Part shown: in pieces, positions 11,496 through 53,499 of the stretch
Position numbering within the stretch: the first letter of the stretch is position 1
Layout of the letters: each line of letters starts with the position of its first letter
IMG/VR virus record: IMGVR_UViG_3300042975_000098
DNA length: 64,000 bases
Source of the DNA: a virus
Reading direction: 5' to 3' (one strand)
Notes under the pieces: generated by a model
What the model was told of the DNA's origin: nothing
The model's database searches: none
What the model saw: the letters and a program-made list of their open reading frames with translations, nothing else
Translations under genes and position numbers: made by a program

Positions 11496-11502
11496 TGATA
11501 TT
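11496..11502 (+). promoter_or_regulatory. YGATATT-N8-ATG motif (tadA)
   Basis: GATATT at 11497-11502, ATG 11511, no SD. Confidence 0.75.
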
Positions 11503-11510
11503 CCCGTGCC

Positions 11511-13034
11511 ATGAACTATCTTTCCAATCTTCTTGATGATCAGAACGAGGAACAGCCGATAGCCAAGGCGCAGGAGTCCGTGGGCGACCTCAATCTGCGG
11601 AAGATCATGTCGCTTCCACCGAGGTTCTTCGATGGCTACTGGGATTACGTCGACGCGTGCGTGACATGGATCTACGGTTCCGTGACGAAGGCGGTATCGC
11701 CGATACTGGCGTCGGGCCGCTCCTCCGGCCACGATTCCGATGAGTACAAGCAGGCGGCCGGCGCGCTGCGATCGTTCGTGATGAGGTACGCGGGGCAGCA
11801 TCCGACAAGGCTTGACGTTGATATCGTATCCCAGATGGTGGAGTATCAGATACTCGGCATGGGCATCATCGAGCCCATATGGCGTGACGAGAACGTGGAG
11901 GAGCTTTTCATCGACGGGCCGAGCCGCGTGAACATCATCTATCATGGCAAGAAGCTCCGCGTGCCCGCGGTCACGTTCAAGAACAAGGATCACGTCTACC
12001 GCGTGGTGTCCAAGGTTCTGGAGGAGACCAACCGTAAGGACCTCGACTTCGGGCAGAACCACCCGTATCTCGACGCGCGCCTAGCCGACCTGTCCCGAGT
12101 CGCCGGCATACACGACACGATATGCCCCGGGGGGCCGGTCGTGGACATACGCCGCCACCCGACCCACTACTGGACGCTATCCGACATCGTGGCCAAGGGG
12201 ACCTGCAGCAGGGAGATGATACAGGACCTGGCCAAATGGATAGAGGCGAAGATGTCCATCCTCGTCATCGGCGAGACCGGCTCCGGCAAGACGACGTTCC
12301 TTGACGCGATCTCCGGGCTGTTCCCCGCATCGGCCAGGATATGGACGATAGAGGACGTTCAGGAGCTGGAGCTGAATCCGAACAAGCCATTCAAGGTGCC
12401 GGGGTGCGAGGTCAAGCTTCCCAACAAGGACGGCGGCAACGGGTTCACCATCAAGGACCACGTGAAGGCATCGCTGCGAATGATGCCGGATATCGTCGTC
12501 ATCGGCGAGACCAGGGACTCGTCCGCGTATGACCTCATGGATGCAGCGAACACCGGTCACCAGGTGTTCTCCACGCTGCACGCGAACAGCGCCGACAGCG
12601 CCATCGACCGTCTTGTGGACCTCATCTCCTCTGGCGGCGACATCAAGGGCCGTGACGCGCTGGGCATGATCGCGTCGGCGTTCGACGTCATCGTCCACAT
12701 CGGGCTCGACAAGCAGGATTACGTTCGCCGCGTCATGGAGATATCCGAGGTCGCGGCGCGTCCCGTGGCCGAGTCGTTCACGACCTCCGCCGGCAAGACG
12801 ATAACGGGCGACGCCACGGTTCCCACCACCGATCTCTGGCAGTTCCAGCAGACCGGGCTGGACGAGCATGGGCACGTCATAGGCGACTGGGTGAAGGTCG
12901 CGGACATCAGTCCGACGCTGGCGCGACGCAAGCGTCTCCCGTTCACCCGCGACTTCACGTGGGATGACTGCGTGGAGCTTGAGGGGTTCAAGGATCGGGA
13001 TACGACCATTCGTCATGGCGTCGGCGACGAGTGA
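11511..13034 (+). CDS. tadA: TadA/CpaF (VirB11-like) pilus assembly ATPase
   Basis: GMGIIEP, LDARL, GETGSGKTT, TIEDVQEL, LRMMPDIVVIGETR, NTGH..STLHANS. Confidence 0.92.
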   Translation: MNYLSNLLDDQNEEQPIAKAQESVGDLNLRKIMSLPPRFFDGYWDYVDACVTWIYGSVTKAVSPILASGRSSGHDSDEYKQAAGALRSFVMRYAGQHPTRLDVDIVSQMVEYQILGMGIIEPIWRDENVEELFIDGPSRVNIIYHGKKLRVPAVTFKNKDHVYRVVSKVLEETNRKDLDFGQNHPYLDARLADLSRVAGIHDTICPGGPVVDIRRHPTHYWTLSDIVAKGTCSREMIQDLAKWIEAKMSILVIGETGSGKTTFLDAISGLFPASARIWTIEDVQELELNPNKPFKVPGCEVKLPNKDGGNGFTIKDHVKASLRMMPDIVVIGETRDSSAYDLMDAANTGHQVFSTLHANSADSAIDRLVDLISSGGDIKGRDALGMIASAFDVIVHIGLDKQDYVRRVMEISEVAARPVAESFTTSAGKTITGDATVPTTDLWQFQQTGLDEHGHVIGDWVKVADISPTLARRKRLPFTRDFTWDDCVELEGFKDRDTTIRHGVGDE

Positions 13035-13044
13035 CGGCCACTGA

Positions 13045-13051
13045 CGATATT
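13045..13051 (+). promoter_or_regulatory. YGATATT-N8-ATG motif (tadB)
   Basis: GATATT at 13046-13051, ATG 13060. Confidence 0.75.
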
Positions 13052-13059
13052 CCGCAGGC

Positions 13060-14034
13060 ATGATGACAACAGTGCTCGCAGGCAACTCGCTACTCATATT
13101 CAAGATAGTCGCGGCGGTGGTCGTAGGCTTTCTCGTCGTGGTGGCGGGTCTTATCGTTCGTAGCTACTATGGCGGCTACAAGGCGAAGATGACCCTTGAG
13201 GATCAGCTTCGGCAGCAGCTTTCGCCGGATTACGATGAGACGGTTCATCTTGACAAGTCGATCCGCATGCGGTGGAACAAGTACTGGGAGAAGGCGCTCA
13301 TCGATTCCGGCGCCAACATATTGTCCGCGAACCGGCAGAACGCCGGCAACATCGTGCTCATCGGCATGGCCGCGATCACCGCGGTGCTCACCGTGCTCTT
13401 CCGCGGGCAGATACTCGGAGCCATCATCATCACGCTGCTGGCGTTGTTCGTCCTGGGCATCGTGCTGTCGTTCATGGCGGACAAGCGCATTGAGACGCTG
13501 ACCAATGAGATACCGCAGTTCATCAGCGGTCTTATCGCCGCCGATCAGACATCGAACTCGCCAAGAGTGGTTCTACAGTCCGGCATCAGGGCCGCTGCGC
13601 CCGAACTCCGCGAGGAGCTTGTGGTCATTGAGAACAAGCTTCATGACGGGGCCGGTCTGAAGGACACCCTTGAGGAGTATGTGAAGACAAGCCCCATATT
13701 CGTGCTCAGGTTCCTGATGATCTGCATCATCCTCGCCTCCGACGCGAACACGAGCATGACGCCGCAGTTGAAGAAGATACAGGAGATCGTGGACGCGCGC
13801 CAGCGTGTGGACCGCGCGCGCAGGCAGGCGGTCGCCAGCATCATGCCTACCATCTGGGTATCCACCATCTTCATTCCGGCGATGTTCCTGTACACGTACA
13901 TTCTGCAGCCGATCGCGAGGGCGTTCTGGTTCCACACGCTGTTCTCATGGCTCATCTTCCTGGTGGTCATCGTGCTGTACTGCTTCGGAATCTGGGTGAG
14001 CAAGCATCTCGTCGATAAAATCAAGAACATGTAG
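13060..14034 (+). CDS. tadB: TadB-like T2SS-F family membrane platform protein
   Basis: TM pattern with PELREEL cytoplasmic domain and two C-terminal TMs; follows tadA. Confidence 0.75.
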   Translation: MMTTVLAGNSLLIFKIVAAVVVGFLVVVAGLIVRSYYGGYKAKMTLEDQLRQQLSPDYDETVHLDKSIRMRWNKYWEKALIDSGANILSANRQNAGNIVLIGMAAITAVLTVLFRGQILGAIIITLLALFVLGIVLSFMADKRIETLTNEIPQFISGLIAADQTSNSPRVVLQSGIRAAAPELREELVVIENKLHDGAGLKDTLEEYVKTSPIFVLRFLMICIILASDANTSMTPQLKKIQEIVDARQRVDRARRQAVASIMPTIWVSTIFIPAMFLYTYILQPIARAFWFHTLFSWLIFLVVIVLYCFGIWVSKHLVDKIKNM

Positions 14035-14041
14035 GCGGCGC

Positions 14042-14170
14042 TACGTCGATTACGTTCGCACGGCAAGCATTCGCTTATCATATGAGCGTATTTTTCGTAC
14101 GACGTCGAAAAAACGGCGTTTTCGATGACGACATCACGAAAACGCGATCCGGCGTTCTGCGTGGCTCTCA
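14042..14170 (+). repeat. 129-bp dispersed intergenic repeat, copy 1
   Basis: Ungapped alignment to 41449-41577 and 53203-53331; imperfect 40-bp palindrome at 14051-14090. Confidence 0.9.
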
Positions 14171-14205
14171 CGCGATTCGCCGGGCGCGCGGGAAAGGGTA
14201 GGGCA

Positions 14206-15438: not shown

Positions 15439-15445
15439 TCGCGCC

Positions 15446-16855: not shown

Positions 16856-16930
16856 GCGTCTCTCCGTCACCACCATGCGGTATAATAAGGGTGTTAGCGA
16901 AGCGGGCAGATCGCCCGCGGCAGGCAAGGA

Positions 16931-17884
16931 GTGATGATGGCAGATACGTTCATGAGGACCCCGTTCGTCTCGCATGATCAGCCGGATGCGGATGGCGTCC
17001 GCGCGGAGGTCATGGTGCAGACCGGCGTGGCCATGGTCGCGTCGGTGGACAGCAATGGCAAGAACGCCAAGGTGGAGCTGAAGGCCGATAACCAGAAGTA
17101 CACGGTGAAGACGTGGATGACCCCCGGCAACAAGGCGTTCGACATTCTCGATGACGCCTATAAGAACAACAAGCCCATCAACGTCCGCGTCGAGCAGCGC
17201 AGGCTGAAGAGGAACCGCGACACGAAGGAGCCGATTCTTCGCTCGACCCCCATCAGGGAGCTTCTCGTGGACCCCACGACCCATAAGCAGACGAACGACC
17301 TGGCCCGCCGCAACGCGGTGAAGACGCTGGTCGGCGTCGCTCCCGTGGACGGCGACATGGAGTTCACCGGCGAGGAGGTGACGCTGCCATCCGAGGACCC
17401 GCAGGAGGGTTCGCACGCCGGCGTCATGTCATCGAACCCGGTGACCTCGACGCCGCCCGCCGGCTACCATTCCGATGGCTATGAGGCCCAGCCGTGGAAG
17501 GGCACGAACAACGATGGCACCGTGAACGCCGGCGCGTATGGCGTGGGCGCGGCCGCCGGGTTCTACTTCCTCGCGTTGGAGCAGAACGCGAAGATCGGCG
17601 ACGCGCTGGCGAAGACGTTGGCGTCGAAGCTGATGGTGGTGTGCGATTACATGCAGAAGAAGGTGTATGACGGCCGTCAGGAGTACGCCGAGCGGAACGC
17701 CGCATCGCATCTTCGCGCGCGCGAGGTGGTCACCGAGGTCATCAAGAGCCGTCTGCAGATCACCGATGAGGTCCTTGCCTCCAGCGAGTCGCTGGGCGAG
17801 TGGCTGAAGAAGGTTCTCGCCGCCTCCGAGGAGATATACCAGTGGGCTTACGAGGATTACGGGAAGTCCATCGCCAACCGGTGA
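16931..17884 (+). CDS. Hypothetical protein
   Basis: TATAAT at 16881-16886, SD AAGGAG; strongly biased codon usage. Confidence 0.7.
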   Translation: MMMADTFMRTPFVSHDQPDADGVRAEVMVQTGVAMVASVDSNGKNAKVELKADNQKYTVKTWMTPGNKAFDILDDAYKNNKPINVRVEQRRLKRNRDTKEPILRSTPIRELLVDPTTHKQTNDLARRNAVKTLVGVAPVDGDMEFTGEEVTLPSEDPQEGSHAGVMSSNPVTSTPPAGYHSDGYEAQPWKGTNNDGTVNAGAYGVGAAAGFYFLALEQNAKIGDALAKTLASKLMVVCDYMQKKVYDGRQEYAERNAASHLRAREVVTEVIKSRLQITDEVLASSESLGEWLKKVLAASEEIYQWAYEDYGKSIANR

Positions 17885-17896
17885 TATTGTCATGCT

Positions 17897-17989
17897 GTCC
17901 AGTCGATGAGGATTACGAAGGTCCGCGCTCAACGGAGTCCGAGACCATAGTGCCTCACTATGAATGACCTTACTCATCGGCTGGATTTT
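17897..17989 (+). ncRNA. Candidate structured small RNA
   Basis: 14-bp closing stem 17897-17910/17973-17986, inner stem aaggtc/gacctt, hairpin catagtg-cct-cactatg; GATATT 8 nt upstream; T run after. Confidence 0.5.
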
Positions 17990-17995
17990 CATTAC

Positions 17996-18035
17996 CAGTT
18001 CGGGGTCGGCGAATCACATCGTCGGCCCCGAACTG
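17996..18035 (+). terminator. 17-bp hairpin (terminator or part of the RNA)
   Basis: cagttcggggtcggcga/tcgtcggccccgaactg pairs fully on the + strand using two G-U pairs. Confidence 0.6.
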
Positions 18036-18060
18036 TATGCGTGACGGTATAATGCCGGTC

Positions 18061-19068: not shown

Positions 19069-19069
19069 C

Positions 19070-21286: not shown

Positions 21287-21331
21287 TCGATATTCCGACG
21301 ACCTGATAACCAGCAGGGGAGGCGACCGGGC

Positions 21332-22334
21332 ATGGCCGATGCGAAGAGCGAAACGGGCAAGAGGAAGAAGAAGATACTCGACCTGAACGCGTCGAGGGTG
21401 GCGGCGACCGCCATCGCCTCGATAACCACCTCCATCATCGCGTCAAGGCTGACCACCACGGTGAACAGCCTGATAGCGCTCGCCATCGTGTCCGTGATCT
21501 CCACGCTGTCCATCGAAGTGTACTCGCGTGTCCTCCACGGCACCCGGAAGGTCGCGGTGAAGACGGCGGCGCTGATCCCGTACTCACGGATACTGCCGGA
21601 TGGCATGGCCGATTCCATCAACGCGCGGTTGGAGCACGCCCTCGATGACACCGCGGGGTCGATGCCGGCCATCGTCGGCGCGGAGCCGCCGACCGCCGAC
21701 ATCGAGAGACCGGCCGATGTCGATTCGCCGGCAACCGCGGCCGGCGATGACGCCGCCGTGCTGGTCGGACCCGATGGCGCCGCCGCGGTGGTGAAGGCCG
21801 AGACCGCCTGCCGGCGATGATGACGATCACGGCGAGCGCATCGGCAGGATCACGCAGACGGTGCTTCTGTTCGTGGTGGTGGCGCTGATGACGATACTCG
21901 GCAGCGGCATCGTGTCGTCGATGATACAGAAGCCGACCACGGAGACGAACGTGTACCCGAGGACGTCGCTGTCGACCGAGGACACCCGTAAGATCATCGA
22001 CTCGGCGTCGGCGTCCGCGGCCGACAAGGTGAACGCCGCGCAGTCGACGACCGATGCGCGGGTGTCGGCGCTGTCGGACAGGATATCGGCGCTGGAGTCG
22101 AAGCTGGATTCGCTGGAGTCCGCCGCTAGCGGCAAGCCATCCACGCCGACCGCGAGCGCGTCGCCATCACCGAGCGCGTCGGCGTCGCCGCCCGCATCGT
22201 CGGCGCCTACGCAGCAGCCATCGGGGGCGAGCGAGGCCGATCTGGAGGCGCTGCGCAAGCAGGTGAACGATCTGAAGGCCGAGGTGGACGAGTTGAAGGC
22301 CGCCGGCGCCACATCCACGGAGACGCAGAAGTAG
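21332..22334 (+). CDS. Membrane protein with coiled coil, probably one gene with a +1 frameshift near 21805
   Basis: ORF 21332-21820 runs on in the next frame as PAGDDDDHGERIGR into ORF 21861-22334; GATATT at 21289 and SD upstream. Confidence 0.55.
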
Positions 22335-27600: not shown

Positions 27601-28569
27601 GGAATCTCCGAGAAGCTGTCGGCCGATATCGTCGCGTACCGCCAGCGTCACGGCCGGTTCGCAAGCGTTGATGACTTCATGCGCAACGCGCCGGACGGAC
27701 TCATCAACGCGGCGACGCTGACCACGCTGGCGAACGTAGGCGCGTTCGACGGGCTGGGCGTGAACAGGCGCGCGCTCGCCACGTCGGCGGCCGAGGTCGT
27801 GGCGTTCTACAAGGACGTGTCGAGGAACGCGACCAGGGGGCAGCGCTCCATCTTCGACGTCATGGGGTCGAACGACCATGACGTGTACCAGTTCCCGGAC
27901 ATCGAGGACTGGTCGTTCATCGACAAGCTGAAGATGGAGAAGACGATCGCCGGCACGTACGTGTCCGCCCGTCCGCTGCAGAACGTGGGCCGCGGCATGT
28001 CCTACCTGCGGGCGGCGTCGAACATCCCCATCATCGCCGCCGACGATCTGAGCAGGGCCACCGGCCGCGGCACGTTCCGCACGCTCGCGTTCCTCACCGG
28101 CATCGAACGCAGGACGAGCCGTAAGGGAACGCCGTTCTACCGTCTGAACATCGATGGTGATGAGACGTCGACCCCGGCCATGATATTCGGCGGTCAGGTT
28201 GATGCTATCGAGCAGTCCGACGCGAACCTCGTCGACGGGTCTCTCTACCTGGTGTCCGGGAAGTACTACAACGGGTACAACGACCGCATGACCTACTCGA
28301 TCGAATCGGTGACGCCGATGGAGCTCGCACGGGACGGCCGCATGCCGCTATGGGTGCGACTCACCGAGGCCAGCGCCGAAGCCGCCGAGAAGATCATCAA
28401 GCGCGAACTCGCCCGCCACCCCGGTGACCTGCCGGTGTTCTTCTCCGTGAAGCTTCACGATGGCACCATCGACAACCACTATAGCGGCCTGTCGATAAGC
28501 GATGACGATGAATCGATCATGGAACTAGAGGACGCCATCGGTAGCAAGCGCATGGGCGTTTGGGAATGA
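24694..28569 (+). CDS. dnaE: DNA polymerase III alpha subunit
   Basis: HNHSEYSLLDG, TDHG (PHP), GRGSAGGS, FERFLNPER..PDVDTDF, KMDFL, YRPGPM, YQEQ, YAFNKAHS. Confidence 0.96.
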   Translation: MDGFVNLHNHSEYSLLDGFSHVDEYIHRAWSLGQDAVGLTDHGNLHGVYQLVSRALASSHVADGNGRPQEPVYVKPIPGVEAYMAPLNPLGAKVRKPVYYGTPSQRHMDVSARGSYLHLTLLAQNDTGWHNLIKLVTAGSTPETFRQHPRIDMDMLARYADGLIAFTGCPSGEIATRFRLGQDDKAYEYARRMKDLFPGRYYVEVMNHRMKSDIERVVLGKLRRMSDDLSIPLVVTNDCHYAMPEDAKHQEEMLAAQSNASMLDAATYDGGPRFAFDSHQYYMKSADDMLKLFPESEWPNAVADAIAIRDGVHVNPDDDMSGRIADGLAAAVMTGSGVADDVVSLVSMLGERMTGEGILRRCADAGVAEGGADASTVGRRALALFTPDDGIDIKLRHDLRPVVPVPDGETEESMFQKQINAGFKRKYVDEKADPAIMVEAKKRIAHEYPVFANNNFIQYMLVVADYINKAREMGVSVGRGRGSAGGSIIAYLMDIVRVDPIKNNLIFERFLNPERLSPPDVDTDFASSRKNDVLQYVQRKYGNDKISNVIVFTTFKPRTAWSDMARIYRIPIYESNRVKGLIPEEKDMTLASLFDRNSKFYDKAADFREAVKAYPQVLEAALAIEGRVKTTTIHPCAVIMADVPISDVAPLAWRPKPKDPWGDWYTQWTYQECEALGLIKMDFLSLIDLDIISWTVANIKKTRGIDISMEDVVKNMDDKPTYDMLGRGDTLGVFQMGSSNFQDLMIRMKPTRFDDISAGVALYRPGPMDMGAHIAYADAKNGRIKPELLDPSFKDTAIDRILAPTYQKIVYQEQVMQISQQAAGFTMGQADVLRKAMGHKKPETMAAMRTKFVNGCVANGYERGAVEKLWGFIEEFSAYAFNKAHSAAYGQVSYMTAWLKCHYPAEFMSAFMSAHIKEKSKLSEFVDDCGAIGLKVSGIDINESEGKMTPVRKTAPDSPDIVFGLEGLNGISEKLSADIVAYRQRHGRFASVDDFMRNAPDGLINAATLTTLANVGAFDGLGVNRRALATSAAEVVAFYKDVSRNATRGQRSIFDVMGSNDHDVYQFPDIEDWSFIDKLKMEKTIAGTYVSARPLQNVGRGMSYLRAASNIPIIAADDLSRATGRGTFRTLAFLTGIERRTSRKGTPFYRLNIDGDETSTPAMIFGGQVDAIEQSDANLVDGSLYLVSGKYYNGYNDRMTYSIESVTPMELARDGRMPLWVRLTEASAEAAEKIIKRELARHPGDLPVFFSVKLHDGTIDNHYSGLSISDDDESIMELEDAIGSKRMGVWE

Positions 28570-31874: not shown

Positions 31875-32018
31875 GTGATCGCACAAGTTGTTAGATGGTG
31901 TTCCAGTGGGCATCCAGCCGGAGTTGGTCGCATGTCGTTGGGTAACTGGTAATCGACGTGATATTGGACGGTCGGACATGCTCACGTATGTTCATGTTTG
32001 CAAACATAAGGAGTTATT

Positions 32019-32270
32019 ATGAACAGAGTAATGGAAACCATGAAGTCCGAGAGGGGTGCGGATACCGTCGAGGTCATCATCGGCATCGTCGTGTTCGTGG
32101 TCTTCGGTCTCGCGGTGTTCGGCATGGTGACGAAGGCGGCCGGCAACAAGATGGCCGATACGTCGAACTGCCTGCAGGACTCGGGCAACATCATCACCAA
32201 CACCGGCAACAATGCTACAAGCAGCAATAAGTGCAAGACTACCCAAAACGGTACTTACAAGTACAACTGA
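32019..32270 (+). CDS. Flp/Tad-type pilin
   Basis: Class III signal SERG|ADTVE with E+5, hydrophobic helix, two Cys; SD AAGGAG; GATATT at 31960. Confidence 0.8.
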   Translation: MNRVMETMKSERGADTVEVIIGIVVFVVFGLAVFGMVTKAAGNKMADTSNCLQDSGNIITNTGNNATSSNKCKTTQNGTYKYN

Positions 32271-32291
32271 TCTACGGTTGTATCGGTTTCG

Positions 32292-32331
32292 AAGAGTGTG
32301 GCGGTCCTCCCGGGAGGACCGCCACACTCTT
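32292..32331 (+). terminator. Perfect 40-bp palindrome after the pilin gene
   Basis: aagagtgtggcggtcctccc/gggaggaccgccacactctt. Confidence 0.7.
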
Positions 32332-32364: not shown

Positions 32365-32371
32365 CGATATT
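32365..32371 (+). promoter_or_regulatory. YGATATT-N8-ATG motif (tadC)
   Basis: GATATT at 32366-32371, ATG 32380. Confidence 0.75.
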
Positions 32372-32379
32372 GCCATGGC

Positions 32380-33279
32380 ATGATGTTAGCTAATCCGCTG
32401 TTCGTAGCCATCCTCGTCGGGCTCATGGTCCTGCTCCTCGGGTACATCGCCACGTTCCGCAAGCACATGGTCGACGCGCAGTTCGACGGTTTCGACGGGT
32501 CCAAGGGCTTCATGAAATACCTCGCCGCGCTTGGCAAGAGCGCCGCCGAGGTGATGCCCGAAGGGGCGACGAGAATGAGCGATCGCTATCGATCGCAACT
32601 CGAACTCAGGCTCCGCAAGGCCGGCAACCCGTGGGGCATGTCCCCCGTGGAGTTCCGACTGCTCCAGATAGGCTGCCTGATAGCGGGAGCCGTGTTCGGC
32701 GGCGTAGCCTACTATCTTGTGTACGATGAACTCTCCATGATCCCATGGCCTGTGTTCATCCTCATATCCTCGGTGGTGGGGTGGATCATACCCGGTCGCG
32801 AGCTTAAGAAGCGAATCGCGGACCGTCTCATCTCGTTCAGGCGCGCGCTGCCGGATGCGCTGGACTTCATTCAGATTCAGAACACCATCCACGCGAACGT
32901 GCTGAACTCGATCATCACCATCACGCCGCGACTGGAGAAAAGCGTGGTCAAGGATGAGTTCACCATCCTATGTAATGACCTGAAATCAGGCCGCGACCCG
33001 AAGCTGGCGCTGGAGGACATGGCGGAACGCGCGCCGTCACCGGAGATGGAATCGTTCGTCAACGTCATCATCCAATCCATCACCATGAGCACATCCGCGA
33101 ACGCCGCCCTCGAGGAGCGCTCGAAGACAGCACGCGAGGAGTACATCGGTCTCATCAACGAGAAGATCGCCTCACTGTCCTCCAGAATCATGCTGTACCT
33201 TGGACCGTCGATGATCATGGCGCTGGTTCTCGTGTCCATCGCGCCATCGATGATATCGATCATGAGTTCGCTCTCGTGA
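32380..33279 (+). CDS. tadC: TadC-like T2SS-F family membrane protein
   Basis: LRKAGNPW, LPDALD, ALEDMAER..PEMESFV, C-terminal TM. Confidence 0.82.
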   Translation: MMLANPLFVAILVGLMVLLLGYIATFRKHMVDAQFDGFDGSKGFMKYLAALGKSAAEVMPEGATRMSDRYRSQLELRLRKAGNPWGMSPVEFRLLQIGCLIAGAVFGGVAYYLVYDELSMIPWPVFILISSVVGWIIPGRELKKRIADRLISFRRALPDALDFIQIQNTIHANVLNSIITITPRLEKSVVKDEFTILCNDLKSGRDPKLALEDMAERAPSPEMESFVNVIIQSITMSTSANAALEERSKTAREEYIGLINEKIASLSSRIMLYLGPSMIMALVLVSIAPSMISIMSSLS

Positions 33280-35047: not shown

Positions 35048-35479
35048 ATGGATGACGAGCAGACTTCGGTGAGCACGATACCGGTGTACGTGTTCACCGA
35101 GTTCTTCAACCGCGAGGCGCAGATGTACGCGCTCGGCGACATACCGCTGCGCAAGCCGAAGTCCATCAAGGCCATGATCTACACCATCGTGCTGTTGCTG
35201 ATCTATAGTGTGCCGATGCTGTTCATCGTGGGCATAGGCACCGTTCTCACCGGTCCGATCCCGGCGGCGATCGTCTTCGGGCCGCCGTTGGTCGCCGGCC
35301 CGTTCGTATCGAAGCCGAACTTCCATAACAAGACGTTCATGAAGCACATGACGGCGATCGTGAGGTGGATGGGGCTGGCGGACATGTACTGCGACATGCG
35401 GGAGATGCAGTACGCGGAATCATCGTCCGCCGATATCGGCCTGTGGCTGGCCAACGATAGCGATATTCACCATGCATGA
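35048..35479 (+). CDS. TcpE/VirB3-like conjugation membrane protein
   Basis: YVFT.FF.RE..MY..GDI.L.KP, two TMs, coupled to the VirB4-like ATPase. Confidence 0.65.
   Translation: MDDEQTSVSTIPVYVFTEFFNREAQMYALGDIPLRKPKSIKAMIYTIVLLLIYSVPMLFIVGIGTVLTGPIPAAIVFGPPLVAGPFVSKPNFHNKTFMKHMTAIVRWMGLADMYCDMREMQYAESSSADIGLWLANDSDIHHA
35461..35467 (+). promoter_or_regulatory. YGATATT-N8-ATG motif (VirB4 C-half)
   Basis: GATATT at 35462-35467, ATG 35476. Confidence 0.7.
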
Positions 35480-41577: not shown

Positions 41578-41640
41578 GCGCGCGTCGTTGCCGGACGCTC
41601 GCATTGGACTTCGCGCCTGATTCCGTGATATAATGAAGAC

Positions 41641-43774: not shown

Positions 43775-43835
43775 CCGGAACCAGGTCGGCAACCGGCCCT
43801 GACTGGCCATGGGATGAGAGAGTTGAGAGGGAACG

Positions 43836-45593
43836 ATGGTCGAACTGAGCGTGGATGATGCGAAGCGCGAGATCAAGGAACGGGTGAGTCTTGTCGACTT
43901 CTTCCGCGGCAACGGATTCGAGCTGCGGAAGAAGGGCGGACGATACTGGGCGCTGTGCCCGTTCCATGACGAGAAGACGCCATCGTTCTCCGTCAACGAC
44001 GAGACCCGCTCCTACCATTGCTTCGGCTGTGGCAAGAGCGGTGACGTGTTCACCTACATGGAGGAGAAGGAGAACCTGTCGTTCATGGAGGCCGTGGATA
44101 GTCTCGCCGCCGGCCTTGACATTCAGCTTAAACGAACCCAGCGGGACGAGAACGAACCCGATAGGAAGACCCTCCTGCGCATCGTCAAGGCGACCGCCGC
44201 ATGGTACTGGCAGCGGTACGCCGAACTTCCAGAGGATCACCCGGCGAAGATCGAGGTGTCCAAGCGCGGCCTGTCCACCGACAACAAGGATCACTATGAC
44301 CTCCTTGGCTGGGCGCCCGAGAACTCCAAGTCGCTCATCGACCATCTCCATTCGCTTGGTTTCAAGGATGATGACATGGTGGCATCCGGGGTGATCAGGC
44401 GATCGGATGACGGCAGACTGTACTCGCTGCTGCGAGCGCGGCTCACGTTCGTCATCACCGACATCCTCAACCGTCCCATCGGGTTCAGCGGGCGTCGCAT
44501 ATTCGGCGACACGAAGGACCGCAAGTACGTGAACTCACCGGACTCGACGCTGTTCCACAAGGCCGGCGTGCTGTTCTGCGAGTCGATCGCGAAGAAGCAG
44601 GCGGCCAAGGACCACGAGATGTTCGTAGTGGAGGGGCAGTTCGACGTGCTGGCGATGCAATCGGTCGGCAAGACGAACACGGTCGCGTCATCGGGCACGG
44701 CGTTCACGGAATCGCACGCCGGCCTCATGCGCCGGTTCGTCGGCGAGAAGGGGCGCGTGGTGTTCTGCTTCGACGCGGATGATGCGGGGCAGGCGGCGGC
44801 GATGAAGGCGTTCGTCAACCTACCCAGCCTACAGGGGCAGGCGTACGCGACGATCACGAAGGACAAGGACCCCTCGGACATGTACCGTGATGACCCGAAG
44901 AGTCTGCTGAACCAGGTGAGCACCATCACGCCACTGTGGAAGCACGTGCTGCTGCATGTGGTCGGCCAGCATGACATGACCACCGATCAGGGTCGCAAGG
45001 CGTTCATCGTGGACTTCGCCAAACTGTACGAGGCCACCACCGACTCCTACACGGCCGACTCCATGTTGAAACTCGCCTCCGTGCTGTCCAGCGTGCCCGT
45101 GGACGTGCTGTCATCCAAGGGACGGTCGCAGACCGCCGCCGAGCCGACGGCCCCCATGATCGATGCGGTCGAGACCGATACCGGGGTGGACGCGCTCGTG
45201 GACAATCTGCTGGCGCTGATGCTGGAGAACCCGGATCTGAGGTCGAGACTGCCGGAGGTCGATCTGCGCGGCGTGCGCGCCCGCAGGTTCGCCCTGTGGA
45301 TGACGAATCATCAGAACGTCAAGGTGATCCCCGAACTGTTCGCCGGCACGGCGGCGGAGGCGTACGTGCGCCGGCTGGACGCGCTGGCGCAACGGCTGCA
45401 CGAGTATGACGAGTTCATGATCCCCGCCGACCCTGCGGAACTCTTCGAGCAGCAGAAGACCATCATCGCACGCGAGCAGGTGCGTCGACGGACAAGGGAC
45501 GCGCTCCTGTCGACGGCGGCAACGGCCGACAGCGCCGACCCTGATGTCCTCGCCGCCGTCGAGGACAAGGTGAGACGTTCCCGTGCGTCATGA
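43836..45593 (+). CDS. dnaG: DNA primase
   Basis: CPFHDEKTPSF..YHCFGCG zinc finger, GFSGR, KYVNSP, VEGQFDV, FDADDAG, KDP. Confidence 0.95.
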   Translation: MVELSVDDAKREIKERVSLVDFFRGNGFELRKKGGRYWALCPFHDEKTPSFSVNDETRSYHCFGCGKSGDVFTYMEEKENLSFMEAVDSLAAGLDIQLKRTQRDENEPDRKTLLRIVKATAAWYWQRYAELPEDHPAKIEVSKRGLSTDNKDHYDLLGWAPENSKSLIDHLHSLGFKDDDMVASGVIRRSDDGRLYSLLRARLTFVITDILNRPIGFSGRRIFGDTKDRKYVNSPDSTLFHKAGVLFCESIAKKQAAKDHEMFVVEGQFDVLAMQSVGKTNTVASSGTAFTESHAGLMRRFVGEKGRVVFCFDADDAGQAAAMKAFVNLPSLQGQAYATITKDKDPSDMYRDDPKSLLNQVSTITPLWKHVLLHVVGQHDMTTDQGRKAFIVDFAKLYEATTDSYTADSMLKLASVLSSVPVDVLSSKGRSQTAAEPTAPMIDAVETDTGVDALVDNLLALMLENPDLRSRLPEVDLRGVRARRFALWMTNHQNVKVIPELFAGTAAEAYVRRLDALAQRLHEYDEFMIPADPAELFEQQKTIIAREQVRRRTRDALLSTAATADSADPDVLAAVEDKVRRSRAS

Positions 45594-45597
45594 TATT
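45591..45597 (+). promoter_or_regulatory. YGATATT-N8-ATG motif (VirB4 N-half)
   Basis: GATATT at 45592-45597, ATG 45606. Confidence 0.7.
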
Positions 45598-45605
45598 CTA
45601 CGAGC

Positions 45606-46940
45606 ATGGCCAACATGAAGAAAATAGTCCCGCCGCCCATCGCCATCGTCGATAACATCGTGTTCTCGAAGACCGAGGCGTGGGCGTTCTGGAACCTGCC
45701 GCTGACGGCCTACGACTTCCTGTCGATGCAGGGGAAGTCGGCCATCCTCGCGCAGGATTCCAACGCGCTGATCTCGCTCATGAAGGGGCGTGACGAGCCG
45801 GTGGACTGCAAGCTCATCCTCACGAACAGCCCGTTGGACGTGAACCACTGGGAGGAGAACTACATCGCCCTGTCCTCGACGTGGAACCACCGGTCGGGTT
45901 TCGACGAGTTCATCAGGAACCAGATCGACCTCATGAAGCACGAGTACAGCTTCGTGGATAAGCGGGTGTTCTTCGGCGTGAAGCTCAACAACCGGCTCGC
46001 CCTCGATTTCGACGCCATCAACCCGTTCCAGAAAGGGTTCAAGGATGCCATGGAGTACACGAAGCGGTTCCTCAACTCGATGCTCGCCGTCCCCAACAAC
46101 GTCATTCCCGACGAGGAGATAGAACGGGAGCACGCGCTTGAGGAATCGTACAATACCATCATCTCGAACAGCGCACTCAATGGCGTTCGCTCGACCACCG
46201 AGGAACTCGCCCTGCTCATCAAGCAGACGCTGTACCCCGCCATGCCCGTGCCCAACATCCAGCTTGAAGACGATAGCCGCTGGGGGGCCGGCGACGCGTA
46301 TGAGGACCTGATAAGCGACATCAGACCACGGGAGAACCCGAAGTACATTCGCATCAACCAGACCATCGGCGGACGCCCCTACACCGGCTACCGGGCCACG
46401 CTCACGTTCAAGTCGTTCCCGCCGAAGATGCAGCCGCCCATCAGCGAACCATGGATATACTATTCCGTCAACAGCGGCGTGTCCAACCCGTTCGACGTGT
46501 TCTCCACGTTCACCATCGTCCCCAACGCCGTCATCCGCAAGGAGATCGAGAAGAACAAGAAGATCCGGCAGGATGGCTTCGACAACGCCACGAAAGCGGG
46601 AGTCGACCCGTCATCGGAACTCGTCAGCGACCTCGATGAGGCCACGGAGCTTGACGCGTTCGCCGCGCAGAACCACCAGCCATGGGTGAAATCGACCACG
46701 AGAATGGTGCTCACCGCCAGCAGCGTGGAGCAGCTGGAGAAGGACGCCGAGACCATGATCCAGAAGTACGGCGACCGCGGCGTCGGCATCAAACTCATAT
46801 GGACCACGCACGATCAGGTGGACCTGCTGCTGGAATCCATGCCCGGCGCGAACCTCATGGAGAAAAGCTTCGTCCAGATGTCCACGATGTCGCTCATCTC
46901 GGCATCCGGCTTCAACGTGTACAACGAGATCGGCGACTGA
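45606..46940 (+). CDS. VirB4/TcpF-like protein, N-terminal half (no Walker motifs)
   Basis: DNIVFS..EAWA...LP...YDFLS, FFGVKL, Q..LLLESMPG, ends ..EIGD. Confidence 0.65.
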   Translation: MANMKKIVPPPIAIVDNIVFSKTEAWAFWNLPLTAYDFLSMQGKSAILAQDSNALISLMKGRDEPVDCKLILTNSPLDVNHWEENYIALSSTWNHRSGFDEFIRNQIDLMKHEYSFVDKRVFFGVKLNNRLALDFDAINPFQKGFKDAMEYTKRFLNSMLAVPNNVIPDEEIEREHALEESYNTIISNSALNGVRSTTEELALLIKQTLYPAMPVPNIQLEDDSRWGAGDAYEDLISDIRPRENPKYIRINQTIGGRPYTGYRATLTFKSFPPKMQPPISEPWIYYSVNSGVSNPFDVFSTFTIVPNAVIRKEIEKNKKIRQDGFDNATKAGVDPSSELVSDLDEATELDAFAAQNHQPWVKSTTRMVLTASSVEQLEKDAETMIQKYGDRGVGIKLIWTTHDQVDLLLESMPGANLMEKSFVQMSTMSLISASGFNVYNEIGD

Positions 46941-46941
46941 C

Positions 46942-47502
46942 ATGGGTTGGAAGGGAAGCCTCGCCGCGCTGCTGACCGGCGCGATCATCGCCGCGGCGTT
47001 CATGCTCGGCATGAACGCCGCGGGCGTCGGCGCGTGGACCGTCGTCGGCTCGTCCATGGAGGATACGCTCCACTCCGGCGACATCGTGTTCGGGGAGCGC
47101 CGTCCCGCCGCCATCGCCGTCAACGACGTCATCGTGTTCACGGACGCCGGCGACTGGAGCGGTTCCACGAGAAGCCACATCATCAAACGGGTCATCGCGG
47201 TCGCCGGCGACCGCGTGCGAATAGACGCGCGCGGCGTCATCACCGTCAACGGGAAACGCCAGCATGACGTGCACGGCGAGTACGCGATGTCCTGTCAGGC
47301 GGCGCCGATCGACATGACGATACCGGCCGGCCGCGTGTTCGCGCGCGGCGACAACGCCAGCGTCTCCGATGACAGCCGGTACCAGGCGTGTAACGGGGAC
47401 GTCGCGAACGCGCTCGTCCCCGTTGCCGACGTGATGCTACGCGCCGGCGGGTTCCGTCTGCCGATAGGCTCATGGGCGAACGCCATAGAGGAGGCCTTGT
47501 GA
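46942..47502 (+). CDS. Signal peptidase I (S26)
   Basis: GSSMEDTL..GD, IKRVIAVAGD, GDN...SDDSR. Confidence 0.9.
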   Translation: MGWKGSLAALLTGAIIAAAFMLGMNAAGVGAWTVVGSSMEDTLHSGDIVFGERRPAAIAVNDVIVFTDAGDWSGSTRSHIIKRVIAVAGDRVRIDARGVITVNGKRQHDVHGEYAMSCQAAPIDMTIPAGRVFARGDNASVSDDSRYQACNGDVANALVPVADVMLRAGGFRLPIGSWANAIEEAL

Positions 47503-47504
47503 CC

Positions 47505-48674
47505 ATGTTCCCGAGAATGCTGCTCATAGCCGCCATCGTCTACACGATAGGCGTGCTCGTCATCGTCAACATCGCGCTCGGCGTGGTCGACCGGGTGGCG
47601 GCCGACAGGGCCGCGCAGTCCCGTGATCCCACGCCGCCGAAACGCCGGCGACACGCGTTCTCCGAGAGCCTGCGGAAAGCGCTCGCCGACGATCGCCTGC
47701 TCCCGATCACCAGGAGCGTCGGCGAGACCGATGACCAGGGCAAGCCGGTGATGGACGGCAAGGGCAAGCCGAAGAAGACGAAGGAGTACGTGCTTGAGAA
47801 GCACGACGCGTACGGCATCCTCATCGACCCCGGGCGCGGCGCCCTCACGTGGCGCAAGCTCTACGCGGCGCTGCTGGTAGCGTCCGTCATCATCACGGCC
47901 GCCGGCGTGATCTCGCCGGCGCTCTACGGGGTGGGGTTCATGGCGTCGCTCGTCATGGACTCGCTCATCATCCATAACGGCGGGAAGCTGATCGCGGCGG
48001 AATCGAAGGCGTTCGACGACGTGCTGGCGATATCCCGGCTGAAGCTCGGAGCCGACGCCACGGACCCGCATGAGATCATCAACATCACCGACTGGGAGTT
48101 CGCCGGCGAGGCCGCCAGCATCGCGAACGGCACCGTGAGGGCATCGGAGGACGGTCAGACCGAGGCCATCGCCAAGGAGGTCGATGCGTATAGTAAGGGG
48201 CATAGGCCGCGGATAGCGAGGATACGCGACGTGCCGGCGGCGATGACGATCGCGTTCCCCATCTCGTTCATGAAGTCAAGCACCGACGCGTTCATCACGC
48301 ACATCAACCAGAACGTCGGCGGCGGCACCGTGGAATGGGTGGCGCAGAAGCGGACCAGCCAGCCGGATGGCTCGGTGAGGATAGAGAACGGCTGGGACTT
48401 CACGGCGCGCATGGTGACGTTGCGGACGATGCCGCCGCTCCCGGACATGGCGAAGCTTCCCATGGACATCGGGGACGGGCCATGGAACGCGATACGACTC
48501 GGCAAGACCGTCGAGGGCGAGGCCGTGTGGGATCTGAGCGGTCAGGGCGGGTCGGTGAACGGCCGCCCGCTCCACGGCGGCGGCGTCGGCGTGACCACCC
48601 CGATGTCGCTGGTGCCGCTGGCCACGGACACGAAGGTCATCGTCGTGGACAGCCGCCATGATTCACGTCCATGA
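47505..48674 (+). CDS. FtsK/SpoIIIE-like membrane ATPase N-terminal fragment ending in a short split-intein N-part
   Basis: TMs, PPLP..A, IRLG...GEAVWD, TPMSLV (pre-Walker A), then PLATDTKV..*. Confidence 0.65.
   Translation: MFPRMLLIAAIVYTIGVLVIVNIALGVVDRVAADRAAQSRDPTPPKRRRHAFSESLRKALADDRLLPITRSVGETDDQGKPVMDGKGKPKKTKEYVLEKHDAYGILIDPGRGALTWRKLYAALLVASVIITAAGVISPALYGVGFMASLVMDSLIIHNGGKLIAAESKAFDDVLAISRLKLGADATDPHEIINITDWEFAGEAASIANGTVRASEDGQTEAIAKEVDAYSKGHRPRIARIRDVPAAMTIAFPISFMKSSTDAFITHINQNVGGGTVEWVAQKRTSQPDGSVRIENGWDFTARMVTLRTMPPLPDMAKLPMDIGDGPWNAIRLGKTVEGEAVWDLSGQGGSVNGRPLHGGGVGVTTPMSLVPLATDTKVIVVDSRHDSRP
48615..48671 (+). mobile_element. Split intein N-fragment (19 aa, Pro-initiated block A)
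   Basis: PLATDTKVIV matches block A (xLxxDTxV/I); too short to be certain on its own. Confidence 0.6.
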
Positions 48675-48678
48675 TATT
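48672..48678 (+). promoter_or_regulatory. YGATATT-N8-ATG motif (cpaB)
   Basis: GATATT at 48673-48678, ATG 48687. Confidence 0.7.
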
Positions 48679-48686
48679 ACCCACGC

Positions 48687-49793
48687 ATGTTCAAGAAGAA
48701 GTCGGTAGACATAGATGCGGCGCCAGCTGCCGCCAAGCAATCAGCATCGCTCAAGGACAAGCGGCCGTTGTGGTTCCTGTTCTTCGCGCTGGCTATCATC
48801 GCAGCGTTCTCGACATGGCTGATACTCAACACCGTGTCCAAGCAGGACACGTATTACGTGCTGTCCCACGCCGTCGCGGCGCAGACGAAGATCACGACCG
48901 ATGACGTCACCGCGCAGACGCTCAGCGGGCAGAAGCCGCCGAACGCGCTGACCGTATCGGACATCCAGCAGGGCAACGTGTACAGCAAGTACCCGCTGAA
49001 CGCGGGCGATGTCCTCGCCGGGTCGAACGCGGGCACGTTGGACTCGTTGAACGAGGGCATTCCCGACAACTGGGTCATCACGTCGTTCACGGTCGCGTCC
49101 GATGACATGCCGACAAGCCTGCAGCGAAGCGATTACTTCGACATGATCGTGCCGGCGACCTCGGCGGTGTCCGACGCGAAGACCGAGCAGGTGCAGGCCA
49201 CGAAGTACCTGTTCCGCAACGTCATGGTTCTGCAGACGTCGGCAACCACCGCAGGAACCGCCGACGCCGCCAAGAACGGGCAGGCCGCGAGTTCATCGGG
49301 GAGCGACAACTCGGCGAACGTGACGCTCGTGGTAGGCATGTCGCCGAAGAACGCCGCGATTCTGCAGACCGTCATGAACCAGAACTACAACGTGAAGCTG
49401 GTCATCTCCCCGAAGCAGACCACGTATCAGGACCCGACCACGCTGAACGGGCTGTATGACTTCGATTACCAGCAGGTGGTGGATGATGCGGTCGACCCGG
49501 CCAAGCCGAGCATCGTGGCATCGCAATGCACGAAGAACAACGGTGCGGACGAGAACAAGAACTGCACCGATCCGACGTTCACCACGACGAAGCGCGATGC
49601 GTTCGGCGTTCCCTACAACGCCAAGGCGTCCGACCTTGACGAGAACGGCGATGTGAAGAAACTTACCGATTTCGAGAAGGAATGGTGCCAGCAGCTCTAC
49701 TCCAACGACTACTACAACGGCAGCAAGTGGGAGTCGGCCAAGGCGTACTGCGCCAAGGGCGGCGTGAAGTCCGGCGAGTCATCGGCCGAGTAG
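48687..49793 (+). CDS. CpaB/RcpC-like SAF-domain Flp pilus assembly protein
   Basis: TM, SAF-like YYVL...V.A...IT..D..PPNAL..PL.AGDVL, NVMVL. Confidence 0.75.
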   Translation: MFKKKSVDIDAAPAAAKQSASLKDKRPLWFLFFALAIIAAFSTWLILNTVSKQDTYYVLSHAVAAQTKITTDDVTAQTLSGQKPPNALTVSDIQQGNVYSKYPLNAGDVLAGSNAGTLDSLNEGIPDNWVITSFTVASDDMPTSLQRSDYFDMIVPATSAVSDAKTEQVQATKYLFRNVMVLQTSATTAGTADAAKNGQAASSSGSDNSANVTLVVGMSPKNAAILQTVMNQNYNVKLVISPKQTTYQDPTTLNGLYDFDYQQVVDDAVDPAKPSIVASQCTKNNGADENKNCTDPTFTTTKRDAFGVPYNAKASDLDENGDVKKLTDFEKEWCQQLYSNDYYNGSKWESAKAYCAKGGVKSGESSAE

Positions 49794-49814
49794 TATCGTG
49801 TCGTCGCGCTGAAT

Positions 49815-49847
49815 AACGGCGGCCCGTCATGATGGCGGGCCGCCGTT
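49815..49847 (+). terminator. Hairpin terminator
   Basis: aacggcggcccgtcat/atggcgggccgccgtt. Confidence 0.6.
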
Positions 49848-49919
49848 CCATGTCGTGAGCGATATTCTATTGACGCCCGCGGTATACTGTTATGGCACGG
49901 CGTTATAAGGAGTGGAAAC

Positions 49920-51455: not shown

Positions 51456-51510
51456 CCGACGACGCGCGCACGAGTGCGTATCGAAGAGCAGCGGGGAGAG
51501 GAACTCGTAC

Positions 51511-52296: not shown

Positions 52297-52336
52297 CGTT
52301 CGCCGACCAACCCGTCGATCGCGCATATTGATCAGC

Positions 52337-52370
52337 AGGCGACCCCGTTCCATGGAACGGGGTCGCCTTT
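52337..52370 (+). terminator. Perfect 32-bp palindrome plus short T run
   Basis: aggcgaccccgttcca/tggaacggggtcgcct then tt. Confidence 0.7.
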
Positions 52371-52459
52371 CCATAAGCATCGCCGCCGGCGCGTCGATGC
52401 CATGGCCAAGAGTACCATGTGAACCATAAGATCATTCCACACGAGGAAAGCGGGATTCC

Positions 52460-53179
52460 ATGTACGACGCGAACGGCCAGCACGCGATGATCACCAAGGC
52501 GGAGGCGCGCGCGGTTTTGAAAATCGTCGGCGACACGACAGCGGACAGGATCGCCAAAGGCAAGACCATAAACCCGACGTTCCACTCGATCATGCCGTTC
52601 GCCAGCGACGAACGACGCCCGTCGGATGGCATACCCGACACCACGGAGCCATACGGGTATGCCTACATCACGAACCGATTCGCCATCGTTCGCTGGCGAA
52701 TCGATATCGACGCGGCTCGCCGACATCTCGCCGACGGGGAGACCATCAGCGAGCAGGCGCTCTCCGCCGCGATCAAGGTCATGCGAAGCTCCGAGCGACT
52801 CAATCTCAATGATGATGCGCTGTGGTCGGCGGGCGAGGGGTTCGACAGGGAGATACCACGCTCCGTCGACCTGAGCTTCGAGCACATCGCCGGGTCGGCG
52901 AGCGCGACCGCAGACGACCGTCAACACATGTACGCGCTTCGCTTCCCCGGTGATGATGGCTCCGGGCTGAGCAAGCACGCCGACGATGGTCATGACCGGT
53001 TCGACGTGAACACGATCATGATGTCGAAAGCAGGCGCCGCCATCGAGCCGCGGGCGCGCGTCCACGCATCGCTGATCACGATGAAAGGCGGCATGACCGC
53101 CATTCGACTCGACCCCTATGAGCGCCATGACGGCGTCGAGGTGGAGGCGTTGCTGCTTGGCATGACCCCACATCGGTGA
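52460..53179 (+). CDS. Hypothetical protein
   Basis: 239 aa ORF between the terminator and repeat copy 3. Confidence 0.55.
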   Translation: MYDANGQHAMITKAEARAVLKIVGDTTADRIAKGKTINPTFHSIMPFASDERRPSDGIPDTTEPYGYAYITNRFAIVRWRIDIDAARRHLADGETISEQALSAAIKVMRSSERLNLNDDALWSAGEGFDREIPRSVDLSFEHIAGSASATADDRQHMYALRFPGDDGSGLSKHADDGHDRFDVNTIMMSKAGAAIEPRARVHASLITMKGGMTAIRLDPYERHDGVEVEALLLGMTPHR

Positions 53180-53202
53180 TATCGCCATCGGCAACGGCCG
53201 TT

Positions 53203-53331
53203 TACGTCGATTACGCTCATACGATAAGCAAACGCTTGCCGTGTGAGCGTATTTTTTATGCGACGTCGGGAAAACGCCGTTTTCGATGCCACGGTCACAA
53301 AACCGCGTTTCCGTGTTCTACGTGGCTTACA
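53203..53331 (+). repeat. 129-bp dispersed intergenic repeat, copy 3 (core inverted)
   Basis: 53220-53243 is the exact reverse complement of 41466-41489 while the flanks are co-oriented. Confidence 0.9.
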
Positions 53332-53349
53332 GCACGCGCCGGCGCCGAA

Positions 53350-53356
53350 CGATATT
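53350..53356 (+). promoter_or_regulatory. YGATATT-N8-ATG motif (FtsK C-fragment)
   Basis: GATATT at 53351-53356, ATG 53365. Confidence 0.75.
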
Positions 53357-53364
53357 GACCGGTC

Positions 53365-53499
53365 ATGACAGACGGCATGGAGACATTCACCCTTGAGGAC
53401 ATCCACGAGATCGACGCCGATGACGATCTCGTGTGCATCAGCGTCGACTCGCCCGGGCACGAGTTCCTGATAGGCGACACGCTCGTCCCCACGCACAAC
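53365..53499 (+). mobile_element. Split intein C-fragment, class 3 type (45 aa)
   Basis: Block F LVCISVDSPGHEFLIG with Cys, block G VPTHN with Thr-His-Asn, +1 Ser. Confidence 0.88.

Follow-up and report, generated by a model that had tools for sequence, protein, structure and literature searches.

The DNA analysed here, called the window below, is a stretch of 64,000 nucleotides (nt) from the IMG/VR virus record IMGVR_UViG_3300042975_000098. It has a GC content of about 0.62 and carries long open frames exclusively on the + strand. Pfam matches reveal a replication/nucleotide module with DnaB, DnaG, Pol III alpha, a delta-like protein, GyrB, RecA, SSB, SbcC and a Mre11-like nuclease, which also holds a 5′-3′ exonuclease and NrdD/NrdG. 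Amid the replication genes lie genes for a TadA/CpaF ATPase, two TadB/C-like platform proteins, a ParA-type TadZ/CpaE-like ATPase and a VirB4-like AAA_10 ATPase. Genes of this second group are preceded by the short motif YGATATT, which is the subject of this work and which we consider to be, most likely, the -10 core of a second promoter class. The names that an initial annotation had given to the motif-bearing genes (TadA/CpaF, TadB- and TadC-like, two VirB4 halves, a C-terminal FtsK piece) held up, that of a CpaB/RcpC-like protein with a weak match (E 0.003).

We refer to YGATATT as class II and to the canonical -10 sequence of the same DNA, GGTATRAT, as class I, and number positions relative to the A of the start codon, taken as the predicted +1. 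Seven copies of GATATT on the + strand (11497, 13046, 32366, 35462, 45592, 48673 and 53351) are followed by ATG after exactly eight nucleotides. TGATATT-N8-ATG at 11496..11513 precedes the gene of the TadA/CpaF-like ATPase (11511-13034), and CGATATT-N8-ATG precedes those of the TadB-like (site 13045..13062, gene 13060-14034) and the TadC-like platform protein (site 32365..32382, gene 32380-33279). The motif before the C-terminal half of the VirB4-like ATPase (site 35461..35478; AAA_10, gene 35476-36648) falls within the last part of the preceding gene. At the site before the N-terminal half (45591..45608; gene 45606-46940), dnaG ends with the TGA of the motif as its stop codon. The two others precede a CpaB/RcpC-like protein with an N-terminal membrane helix (48672..48689; gene 48687-49793) and a product composed of a weak intein-C-like stretch and an FtsK/TcpA-like C-terminal piece (53350..53367; gene 53365-54315). 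At all seven sites the motif is preceded by C or T, the ATG is preceded by C and no SD-like (Shine-Dalgarno) word is present, as the initial annotation had stated. None of the seven open frames has a start codon earlier than this ATG, and the sequence features expected of leaderless genes were found at every site.

In 100 dinucleotide shuffles, GATATT-N8-ATG occurred 0.17 times on average, with a maximum of two and no shuffle with seven or more. No other distance between GATATT and ATG was represented by more than two copies. The total number of GATATT copies (15) equals the expectation for both strands (15.06). All 15 are on the coding + strand and none on the other, and 13 lie at or between gene ends. 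The signal therefore resides in strand, placement and fixed spacing and not in number. The view that the seven sites are non-random, which the initial annotation had based on a low number of copies expected by chance, is thus right for spacing, with all coordinates correct, but does not extend to the total, which does not exceed chance. The reverse complement AATATC, of which 3.5-8.6 copies are expected, does not occur on the + strand of the window.

Alignment of the 15 sites revealed G at -14 in all of them and Y at -15 in 14, that is, an extended -10 element, together with invariant T-10 and Y-9. C occupies -1 in 13 of the 15 sites, the leadered ones included, and the next base is mostly a purine, which fits the usual preference for a pyrimidine at -1 and a purine at +1. 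No conserved -35 was found: no position upstream of -15 is informative among the 15 window sites or among 26 sites of the relative G001 described below, in agreement with the earlier remark that a common -35 is missing. Since the -35 is not conserved in actinobacterial-type promoters in general (PMC3898074), its absence is no mark of oddity.

Class I is readily recognized in the same DNA. GGTATRAT occurs 13 times (1.39 expected), 12 times on the + strand (376, 2368, 3056, 9458, 16879, 18046, 22475, 24664, 36642, 39522, 42577 and 54570); a variant, GATATAAT, is located at 41627 on the + strand (N6, start 41641). Six start codons follow class I sites without a leader after N6 (390, 3070, 9472 (GTG), 39536, 41641 and 54584) and one after N7 (18061); class I also lies upstream of the SD-led genes of SSB, GyrB, Pol III alpha and RecA. 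TATAAT-N6-start is a known leaderless layout in Actinobacteria, in which the -35 is not conserved and an extension by G or CG is common (PMC3898074). In a position-specific, unbiased 5-mer scan of the window, GATAT at -14 and ATATT at -13 rank first, followed by GGTAT at -14. Relative to the start codon, both classes have G-14, T-12, A-11 and T-10 in common, and the T and A of GATATT coincide with T-12 and A-11 of GGTATRAT-N6-ATG. The register shared with a canonical -10 marks class II as a probable variant of this element and speaks against a signal of another kind. It differs from class I by A-13 and T-9 and by the lack of a conserved A-8 or T-7, and the two classes are discrete and do not form a continuum. 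Consistent with the initial annotation, no class II site at N8 was found before the replication genes of the window, which use an SD or GGTATRAT instead. The proposal of a distinct -10-only promoter for leaderless mRNAs thus finds support in the sequence as far as a distinct -10-type element is concerned; it has to be amended in that the element would be a variant in the canonical register and would also serve some leadered transcripts.

Such leadered transcripts are predicted from the eight GATATT copies that lack an ATG at N8. Four of them, all reported before (31960, 49861, 21289 and 61823), precede genes with an SD of their own 28-60 nt downstream. The site at 31959-31965 is followed by a leader of about 45 nt with AAGGAG and by the Flp-like pilin gene at 32019-32270 (whole unit 31959..32270, +). 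The pilin has 83 amino acids, with ERG/ADTVEV followed by a hydrophobic helix, and its SD is strong. CGATATT at 49860-49866, a leader and again AAGGAG precede the TadZ/CpaE-like ATPase gene (49920-51455; feature 49815..49874, +). The other two copies serve small membrane proteins: a 162-amino-acid protein with one membrane helix (21288..21820, +; SD GGGGAGG) and a 142-amino-acid protein with three membrane helices (61860-62288, within 61822..62288, +; SD TGGAGG). TGATATT at 17882-17888 precedes a structured non-coding RNA (ncRNA) of about 95 nt that would begin at the predicted +1 17897 and ends with a U run (17882..17992, +).

The ncRNA lies between the gene of a 317-amino-acid protein and the delta-like gene. 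Its 14-bp closing stem starts at the predicted +1, and the folding z-score is -6.9. The corresponding intergenic region of the two relatives L003 and G001, introduced below, likewise carries the motif, eight nucleotides and an RNA with a matching closing stem. In three elements (window 17897-17992, L003:16508-16608 and L011:17571-17668 of G001), ten stem pairs are preserved by compensatory changes of both bases. Rfam gave no match in the window. Folding also revealed, downstream of the pilin gene, a perfect, GC-rich 17-bp hairpin and a T-rich tail (32293..32330, +; -39.7 kcal/mol, z -6.3). The structure looks terminator-like and would separate the pilin unit from the TadC promoter; pilin gene and hairpin (32019-32330) form a short unit that is probably highly expressed. 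A 15-bp hairpin at 49815-49847 lies upstream of the TadZ site. These terminator-like hairpins lie 36 nt upstream of the TadC site and 14 nt upstream of the TadZ site, and fresh initiation is therefore needed at both places. A promoter/terminator scan missed the strong hairpins and was uninformative; the hairpins were confirmed by folding. Since the motif precedes not only leaderless genes but also leadered genes with an SD as well as an ncRNA, it would act on transcripts and is not a ribosome signal, and a ribosome-binding role was dropped for the same reason.

To put the motif into context, relatives of the window have to be considered. Contigs that carry TadA relatives are 170-493 kb long. 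The sole relative in IMG/VR, G001 (IMGVR_UViG_3300044557_000292), is a complete record of 419,707 bp with terminal repeats, listed as a virus, with a GC content of 0.49. It contains orthologs of nearly every window gene (25-65% identity). L003 has a GC content of 0.45, is syntenic with the window and encodes a TadA 52% identical to that of the window. Scans of IMG/VR with Pol III alpha and a VirB4 half as queries gave no match, nor did megablast of the window against plasmids. The Pfam models Terminase_6N and HK97-capsid have zero matches in G001, which has type IV secretion system (T4SS)-like genes; a coupling protein, VirB4-like, TcpC-like and Tad genes are present. We therefore call these DNAs giant extrachromosomal elements and not phages; G001 may be a giant conjugative plasmid-like element.

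Conservation of the motif was evident in both relatives. In L003, CGATATT-N8-ATG is found at TadA and TGATATT-N8-ATG at TadB, both with C at -1. In G001, the exact GATATT-N8-ATG is not enriched (3 versus 2 in the control), which looked like a refutation. A spacing scan revealed that the variant used there is GATATC: GATATC-N8-ATG occurs 17 times at this distance and about four times at others. TGATATCTT at -15 to -7 is the top position-specific signal before candidate G001 starts, above GGAGG, and TGATATC at -15 reaches a z-score of 11.7 with 26 sites. A T at -7 is conserved in G001 (TATCTT; 0.84 bit at -7). Positions -15 and -14 are mostly T-G in G001, with some C at -14, and A is found at -14 in the lineage L028. 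At the TadB gene, TGATATC is present in G001/L001 and TATATT in L005. As an aside, the counterpart of class I in G001 is GGTACCAT, which lies one base further upstream (N7).

A further comparison concerns the orthologs. About 25 of the approximately 405 genes of G001 (6.2%) carry the motif. Among the orthologs of the seven leaderless window genes, five have it at N8, one at N9 and one is SD-led (P = 1.7e-5 at the 6.2% background). The five are TadA, the VirB4 N-terminal half and the FtsK piece (CATATC each) and TadB and TadC (TGATATC each). The ortholog of the VirB4 C-terminal half has CATATC at N9, and that of the CpaB/RcpC-like protein switched to an SD-led start. SD-led genes, on the other side, remain SD-led in the window element and in G001. 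The antisense form GATATCA (25 copies) is 2.9-fold rarer in G001 than TGATATC (73 copies), with equal expectation for both; together with the lack of AATATC in the window, this suggests selection against antisense promoters.

Apart from the ncRNA, the predicted targets of class II in the window are the genes of TadA, TadB, TadC, the pilin, the TadZ-like and CpaB-like proteins, both VirB4 halves, the FtsK/TcpA-like piece and two small membrane proteins. Further genes with the motif in G001 encode TcpC-like, CrgA-like, YdjM, LemA, ABC ATPase, SNF2 helicase, MoxR and exo/endo-phosphatase proteins. With these additional targets, the regulon is enriched in transfer and envelope functions and not limited to them. 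The original description as a pilus/conjugation regulon is consequently correct in its link to those genes and too narrow, as the ncRNA, the small membrane proteins and the further G001 genes lie outside it.

A candidate for the protein that reads the motif was found in the relatives. G001 encodes two sigma-like proteins, a 276-amino-acid RpoD-like sigma (Sigma70_r2 E 1e-11; phrog_351) and a 361-amino-acid protein that stays under every curated cut-off and has no Pfam match at E < 1. An AlphaFold2 model of the latter (mean pLDDT, i.e. predicted local distance difference test, 73) matched 60 sigma chains in Foldseek at E of at most 1e-3. The best matches were SigB and SigA of M. tuberculosis (E 5e-6, probability 1.0) over 318 columns (SigB chain of 300 residues). 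According to this model, the protein has a sigma fold (sigma2-sigma3-sigma4). In regions 2.3-2.4, SAVNYLMQW of the candidate is aligned with FSTYAIWW. Relative to the RpoD-like sigma, the residues at sigma70 positions Y430 and W434 are kept and those at W433, R436 and Q437, which adjoin the -12 base, are changed. The candidate does not score as FliA/WhiG and has no match in PHROGs, including the phage sigma families. Its family comprises 18 members, every one on elements of this kind, and the family alignment found no relative in 185,579 species genomes.

The motif stands at N8 before the gene of this divergent sigma in five lineages, as TGATATC in G001, L027 and L029, as CGATATT-N8-GTG in L030 and as GAATATC in L028. 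It is typical of alternative sigma factors that their promoter is found before their own gene. The gene of the coupling protein carries the motif at N8 in L029 and L030 and at N9 in L028. All sigma-bearing lineages contain a block of genes for a dUTPase, the divergent sigma, a small protein, an HU-like protein, a T2SSE-type secretion ATPase and a TraG/TrwB coupling protein. By this association, the 361-amino-acid protein is most likely the reader of the motif, in the sense of the best candidate.

Some further features of the window deserve mention. The VirB4-like ATPase is split, with the C-terminal half (35476-36648) placed 10 kb before the N-terminal half (45606-46940), so that the order is reversed. 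Both match phrog_24614, the C-terminal half at profile positions 470-797 and the N-terminal half at 224-428 of 815. Each half has its own class II site, and the identical split is found in G001. The FtsK/TcpA-like coupling protein is fragmented as well (47472-48674 and 53365-54315), and the N-terminal stretch of the 53365 product weakly resembles the C-termini of DnaB inteins. The G001 gene L011:862-1818 fuses FtsK_SpoIIIE with a Hint domain. Two more sites lie on the + strand. A class II-like site without an assigned target (55114..55282) precedes a stretch of 154 untranslated nucleotides (55129-55282), which may represent a leader or else a small RNA, and the gene of a DUF4379 zinc-finger protein. 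TGATATT-N7-C in the 3′ end of dnaE (28181..28195), 380 nt before the gene at 28577, is possibly an internal promoter, as judged from its sequence. Where T precedes GATAT (11496, 45591, 48672 and 17882, and 17 sites in G001), the resulting TGA is in frame, four codons before the start. In three window cases, this in-frame TGA also terminates the preceding gene. The arrangement may be selected for or may be a by-product of T-15 and the fixed spacing.

Taken together, we propose, with a probability of roughly two in three (0.68), that YGATATT is the -10 core of a second, mostly leaderless promoter class and that it is most likely read by the divergent sigma of the element. The holoenzyme would bind Y-15 G-14 A-13 T-12 A-11 T-10 T-9 and need neither a -35 nor T-7. 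It would open the DNA and initiate at the purine after the conserved C-1, and in seven genes this purine would be the A of ATG. The seven mRNAs would accordingly be leaderless and translated as such; the other units would receive a leader with an SD, or be an ncRNA. In this way, class II would drive the Tad-like pilus, the T4SS-like transfer genes and small envelope proteins, and the replication genes would remain on the GGTATRAT class. The reader would be the divergent sigma70-family protein encoded beside the coupling-protein gene. The motif at its own gene would provide positive autoregulation and hence a switch for the transfer apparatus, a behaviour that we infer, like the pairing of sigma and motif.

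Several observations weigh against this proposal. T is found at -7 in only three of the 15 window sites and in one of the seven leaderless sites, so that the conserved T-7 of a sigma70-type -10 is lacking. For a -10 in which -7 is neither conserved nor flipped, sigma28 offers an established precedent, (-15)GCCGATAA(-8) (PMC12784957). The register could also be read differently: if GATATT itself is the hexamer, A-11 and T-7 are satisfied and the start would be placed 2 nt before ATG. About 50 sense-strand copies of TGATATC in G001 lie away from gene starts, and the 7-mer alone is therefore not sufficient. Promoter activity and the start site are themselves deduced from sequence. As to the reader, the initial annotation had suggested a sigma factor encoded by the element. 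Relatives do encode a candidate with the motif at its own gene, but no sigma gene was found within the window. The sequence scores of the candidate are low, with 13.4 bits for Pfam Sigma70_r2 (cut-off 24), 21.5 bits for NCBIfam TIGR02937 (cut-off 42.9) and an hhalign probability of only 15% against the RpoD-like sigma. In one sigma-bearing lineage (L032-L034), the motif is missing at N8 before the sigma gene and only YGATATA occurs 60-95 nt upstream. Finally, class II is compatible with the CGN/TGN-TA portion found in ordinary promoters of actinobacterial type (PMC3898074), so that recognition by a host sigma is possible.

Such a host factor could be the housekeeping SigA or a group 2 sigma, with an extended -10 as target; alternatively, it could be a group 3 sigma of the WhiG/FliA type, for which the -10 reads GCCGATAA. 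The transfer genes of the element would in this case be tied into a host programme. We regard this as unlikely overall, yet as an explanation that has to be taken seriously. YG-A-TA matches the SRN/CGN/TGN-TANNNT extension that is common in M. tuberculosis promoters, which likewise lack a -35 (PMC3898074). CGATAT agrees with five of the six bases of the sigma28 core CGATAA, and -7 is dispensable for sigma28 (PMC12784957). Moreover, type IV pilus genes are under WhiG in Rubrobacter (PMC8325347), and the site at 41627 (TGATATAAT) is a hybrid of classes I and II. However, TANNNT promoters place no constraint on -10 and -9, where class II invariably has T and Y, while T-7 is free in the window; the two classes are also discrete. 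TAAA is absent from the position of the sigma28 -35. In addition, the motif is kept across elements with GC contents of 0.45-0.62, which probably have different hosts, all with the divergent sigma whose gene bears the motif.

We give very little weight to an action at the level of RNA, either as an endoribonuclease site, with a cut 8 nt downstream that would yield leaderless mRNAs and release the ncRNA, or as a non-SD site for the ribosome or an activator. Most sites do lie in very short gaps or in the end of the upstream gene, where read-through must exist, the spacing to AUG is fixed, and the position overlaps the usual SD window. On the other hand, the motif also lies 28-150 nt upstream of SD-led genes and before the ncRNA, it shares its register with the canonical -10 found in the same DNA, and it has zero complementarity to the anti-SD. 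The strong terminator-like hairpins directly before two sites and the antisense depletion, which is expected of a promoter acting at the DNA level, point in the same direction. It is just as improbable that a repressor or activator uses the motif as its operator, overlapping weak, otherwise unrecognized promoters. The G001 variant GATATC is palindromic, and the fixed placement at the start codon would suit a roadblock repressor. GATATT of the window is not palindromic, though, its flanks are asymmetric (T upstream, pyrimidine-rich downstream, Y at -1), its use is strictly strand-specific, and no other promoter-like element is common to the sites. A palindromic operator was dropped because the window variant is asymmetric and strand-specific.

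A bolder version of the promoter proposal can be formulated, to which we assign somewhat less than even odds. The divergent sigma would represent an undescribed clade with a sigma70 fold, confined to uncultured elements of 0.17-0.5 Mb, that starts transcription at the A of the start codon independently of T-7 and -35. Its self-activation would create a bistable switch for the Tad-like pilus, the split VirB4, the intein-split coupling protein and the ncRNA, and the replication genes would follow an RpoD-type programme. For giant extrachromosomal elements from uncultured bacteria, little more than lists of genes is available, and here a regulatory code of one of them becomes readable: two promoter classes are visible by eye, one marking replication genes and the other marking transfer and envelope genes, with a candidate dedicated sigma. 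Such a code aids the annotation of start codons, transcription units and unannotated ncRNAs, and it predicts which genes without a known function belong to the transfer programme. A simple sigma/promoter pair with strictly leaderless output could also be reconstituted in vitro or moved to an actinobacterial host.

Comparison with known systems reveals several partial likenesses. The late promoters of phage T4 consist of TATAAATA at -10 only and are read by gp55 with gp33 and the sliding clamp. As proposed for class II, a -10-only element is scattered before single genes and a dedicated small sigma is involved; the sequence is another one, the T4 transcripts are not leaderless, and the candidate here has a full-length sigma fold. 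The initial annotation had compared the motif to phage late promoters, which holds as an analogy only. The SPO1 late promoters, CGTTAGA-N17-19-GATATT, are read by the phage sigma gp34 with gp33 (cited in PMC3601020). The -10 hexamer is identical, and a sigma of a mobile element redirects the host RNA polymerase to a class of genes, as the candidate would do here; class II has neither CGTTAGA nor another -35, the candidate sigma has no PHROG match and the transcripts would be leaderless. The hexamer in common is probably a coincidence of short AT-rich words, and identity with SPO1 late promoters was dropped, as no CGTTAGA -35 and no gp34-like protein were found.

Promoters of sigma28 combine a -35 TAAA, placed about 15-16 nt upstream, with the -10 GCCGATAA at -15 to -8 (PMC12784957). 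They share the CGATA core with class II, their -7 is not conserved either, and an alternative sigma for a surface appendage is known from WhiG, the actinobacterial sigma28, and the pili of Rubrobacter (PMC8325347). In contrast, class II has no TAAA at -35 and its last core base is T instead of A. The candidate sigma keeps Trp at the position of sigma70 W434, where group 3 sigmas have Arg (PMC12784957). Identity with sigma28 promoters was dropped for want of a matching -35. A likeness in layout is offered by the leaderless promoters of Actinobacteria and Deinococcus-Thermus, with a TANNNT -10 right before the start codon (Cortes et al. 2013, PMC3898074; PMC12340547). In them, as in class II read in the proposed register, T-12 and A-11 precede the start codon by a short, constant interval, without a -35 or an SD and with G/C-G at -14/-15. 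GGTATRAT-N6-ATG of class I is the textbook leaderless actinobacterial layout. Class II differs from it by the invariant A-13, T-10 and T/C-9, by the lack of a conserved T-7 in the window, by being specific for a set of genes and by being kept in mobile elements of very different GC content. The proposed sigma/promoter pair is new, and the mode in which it would switch a set of genes is already familiar from these systems.

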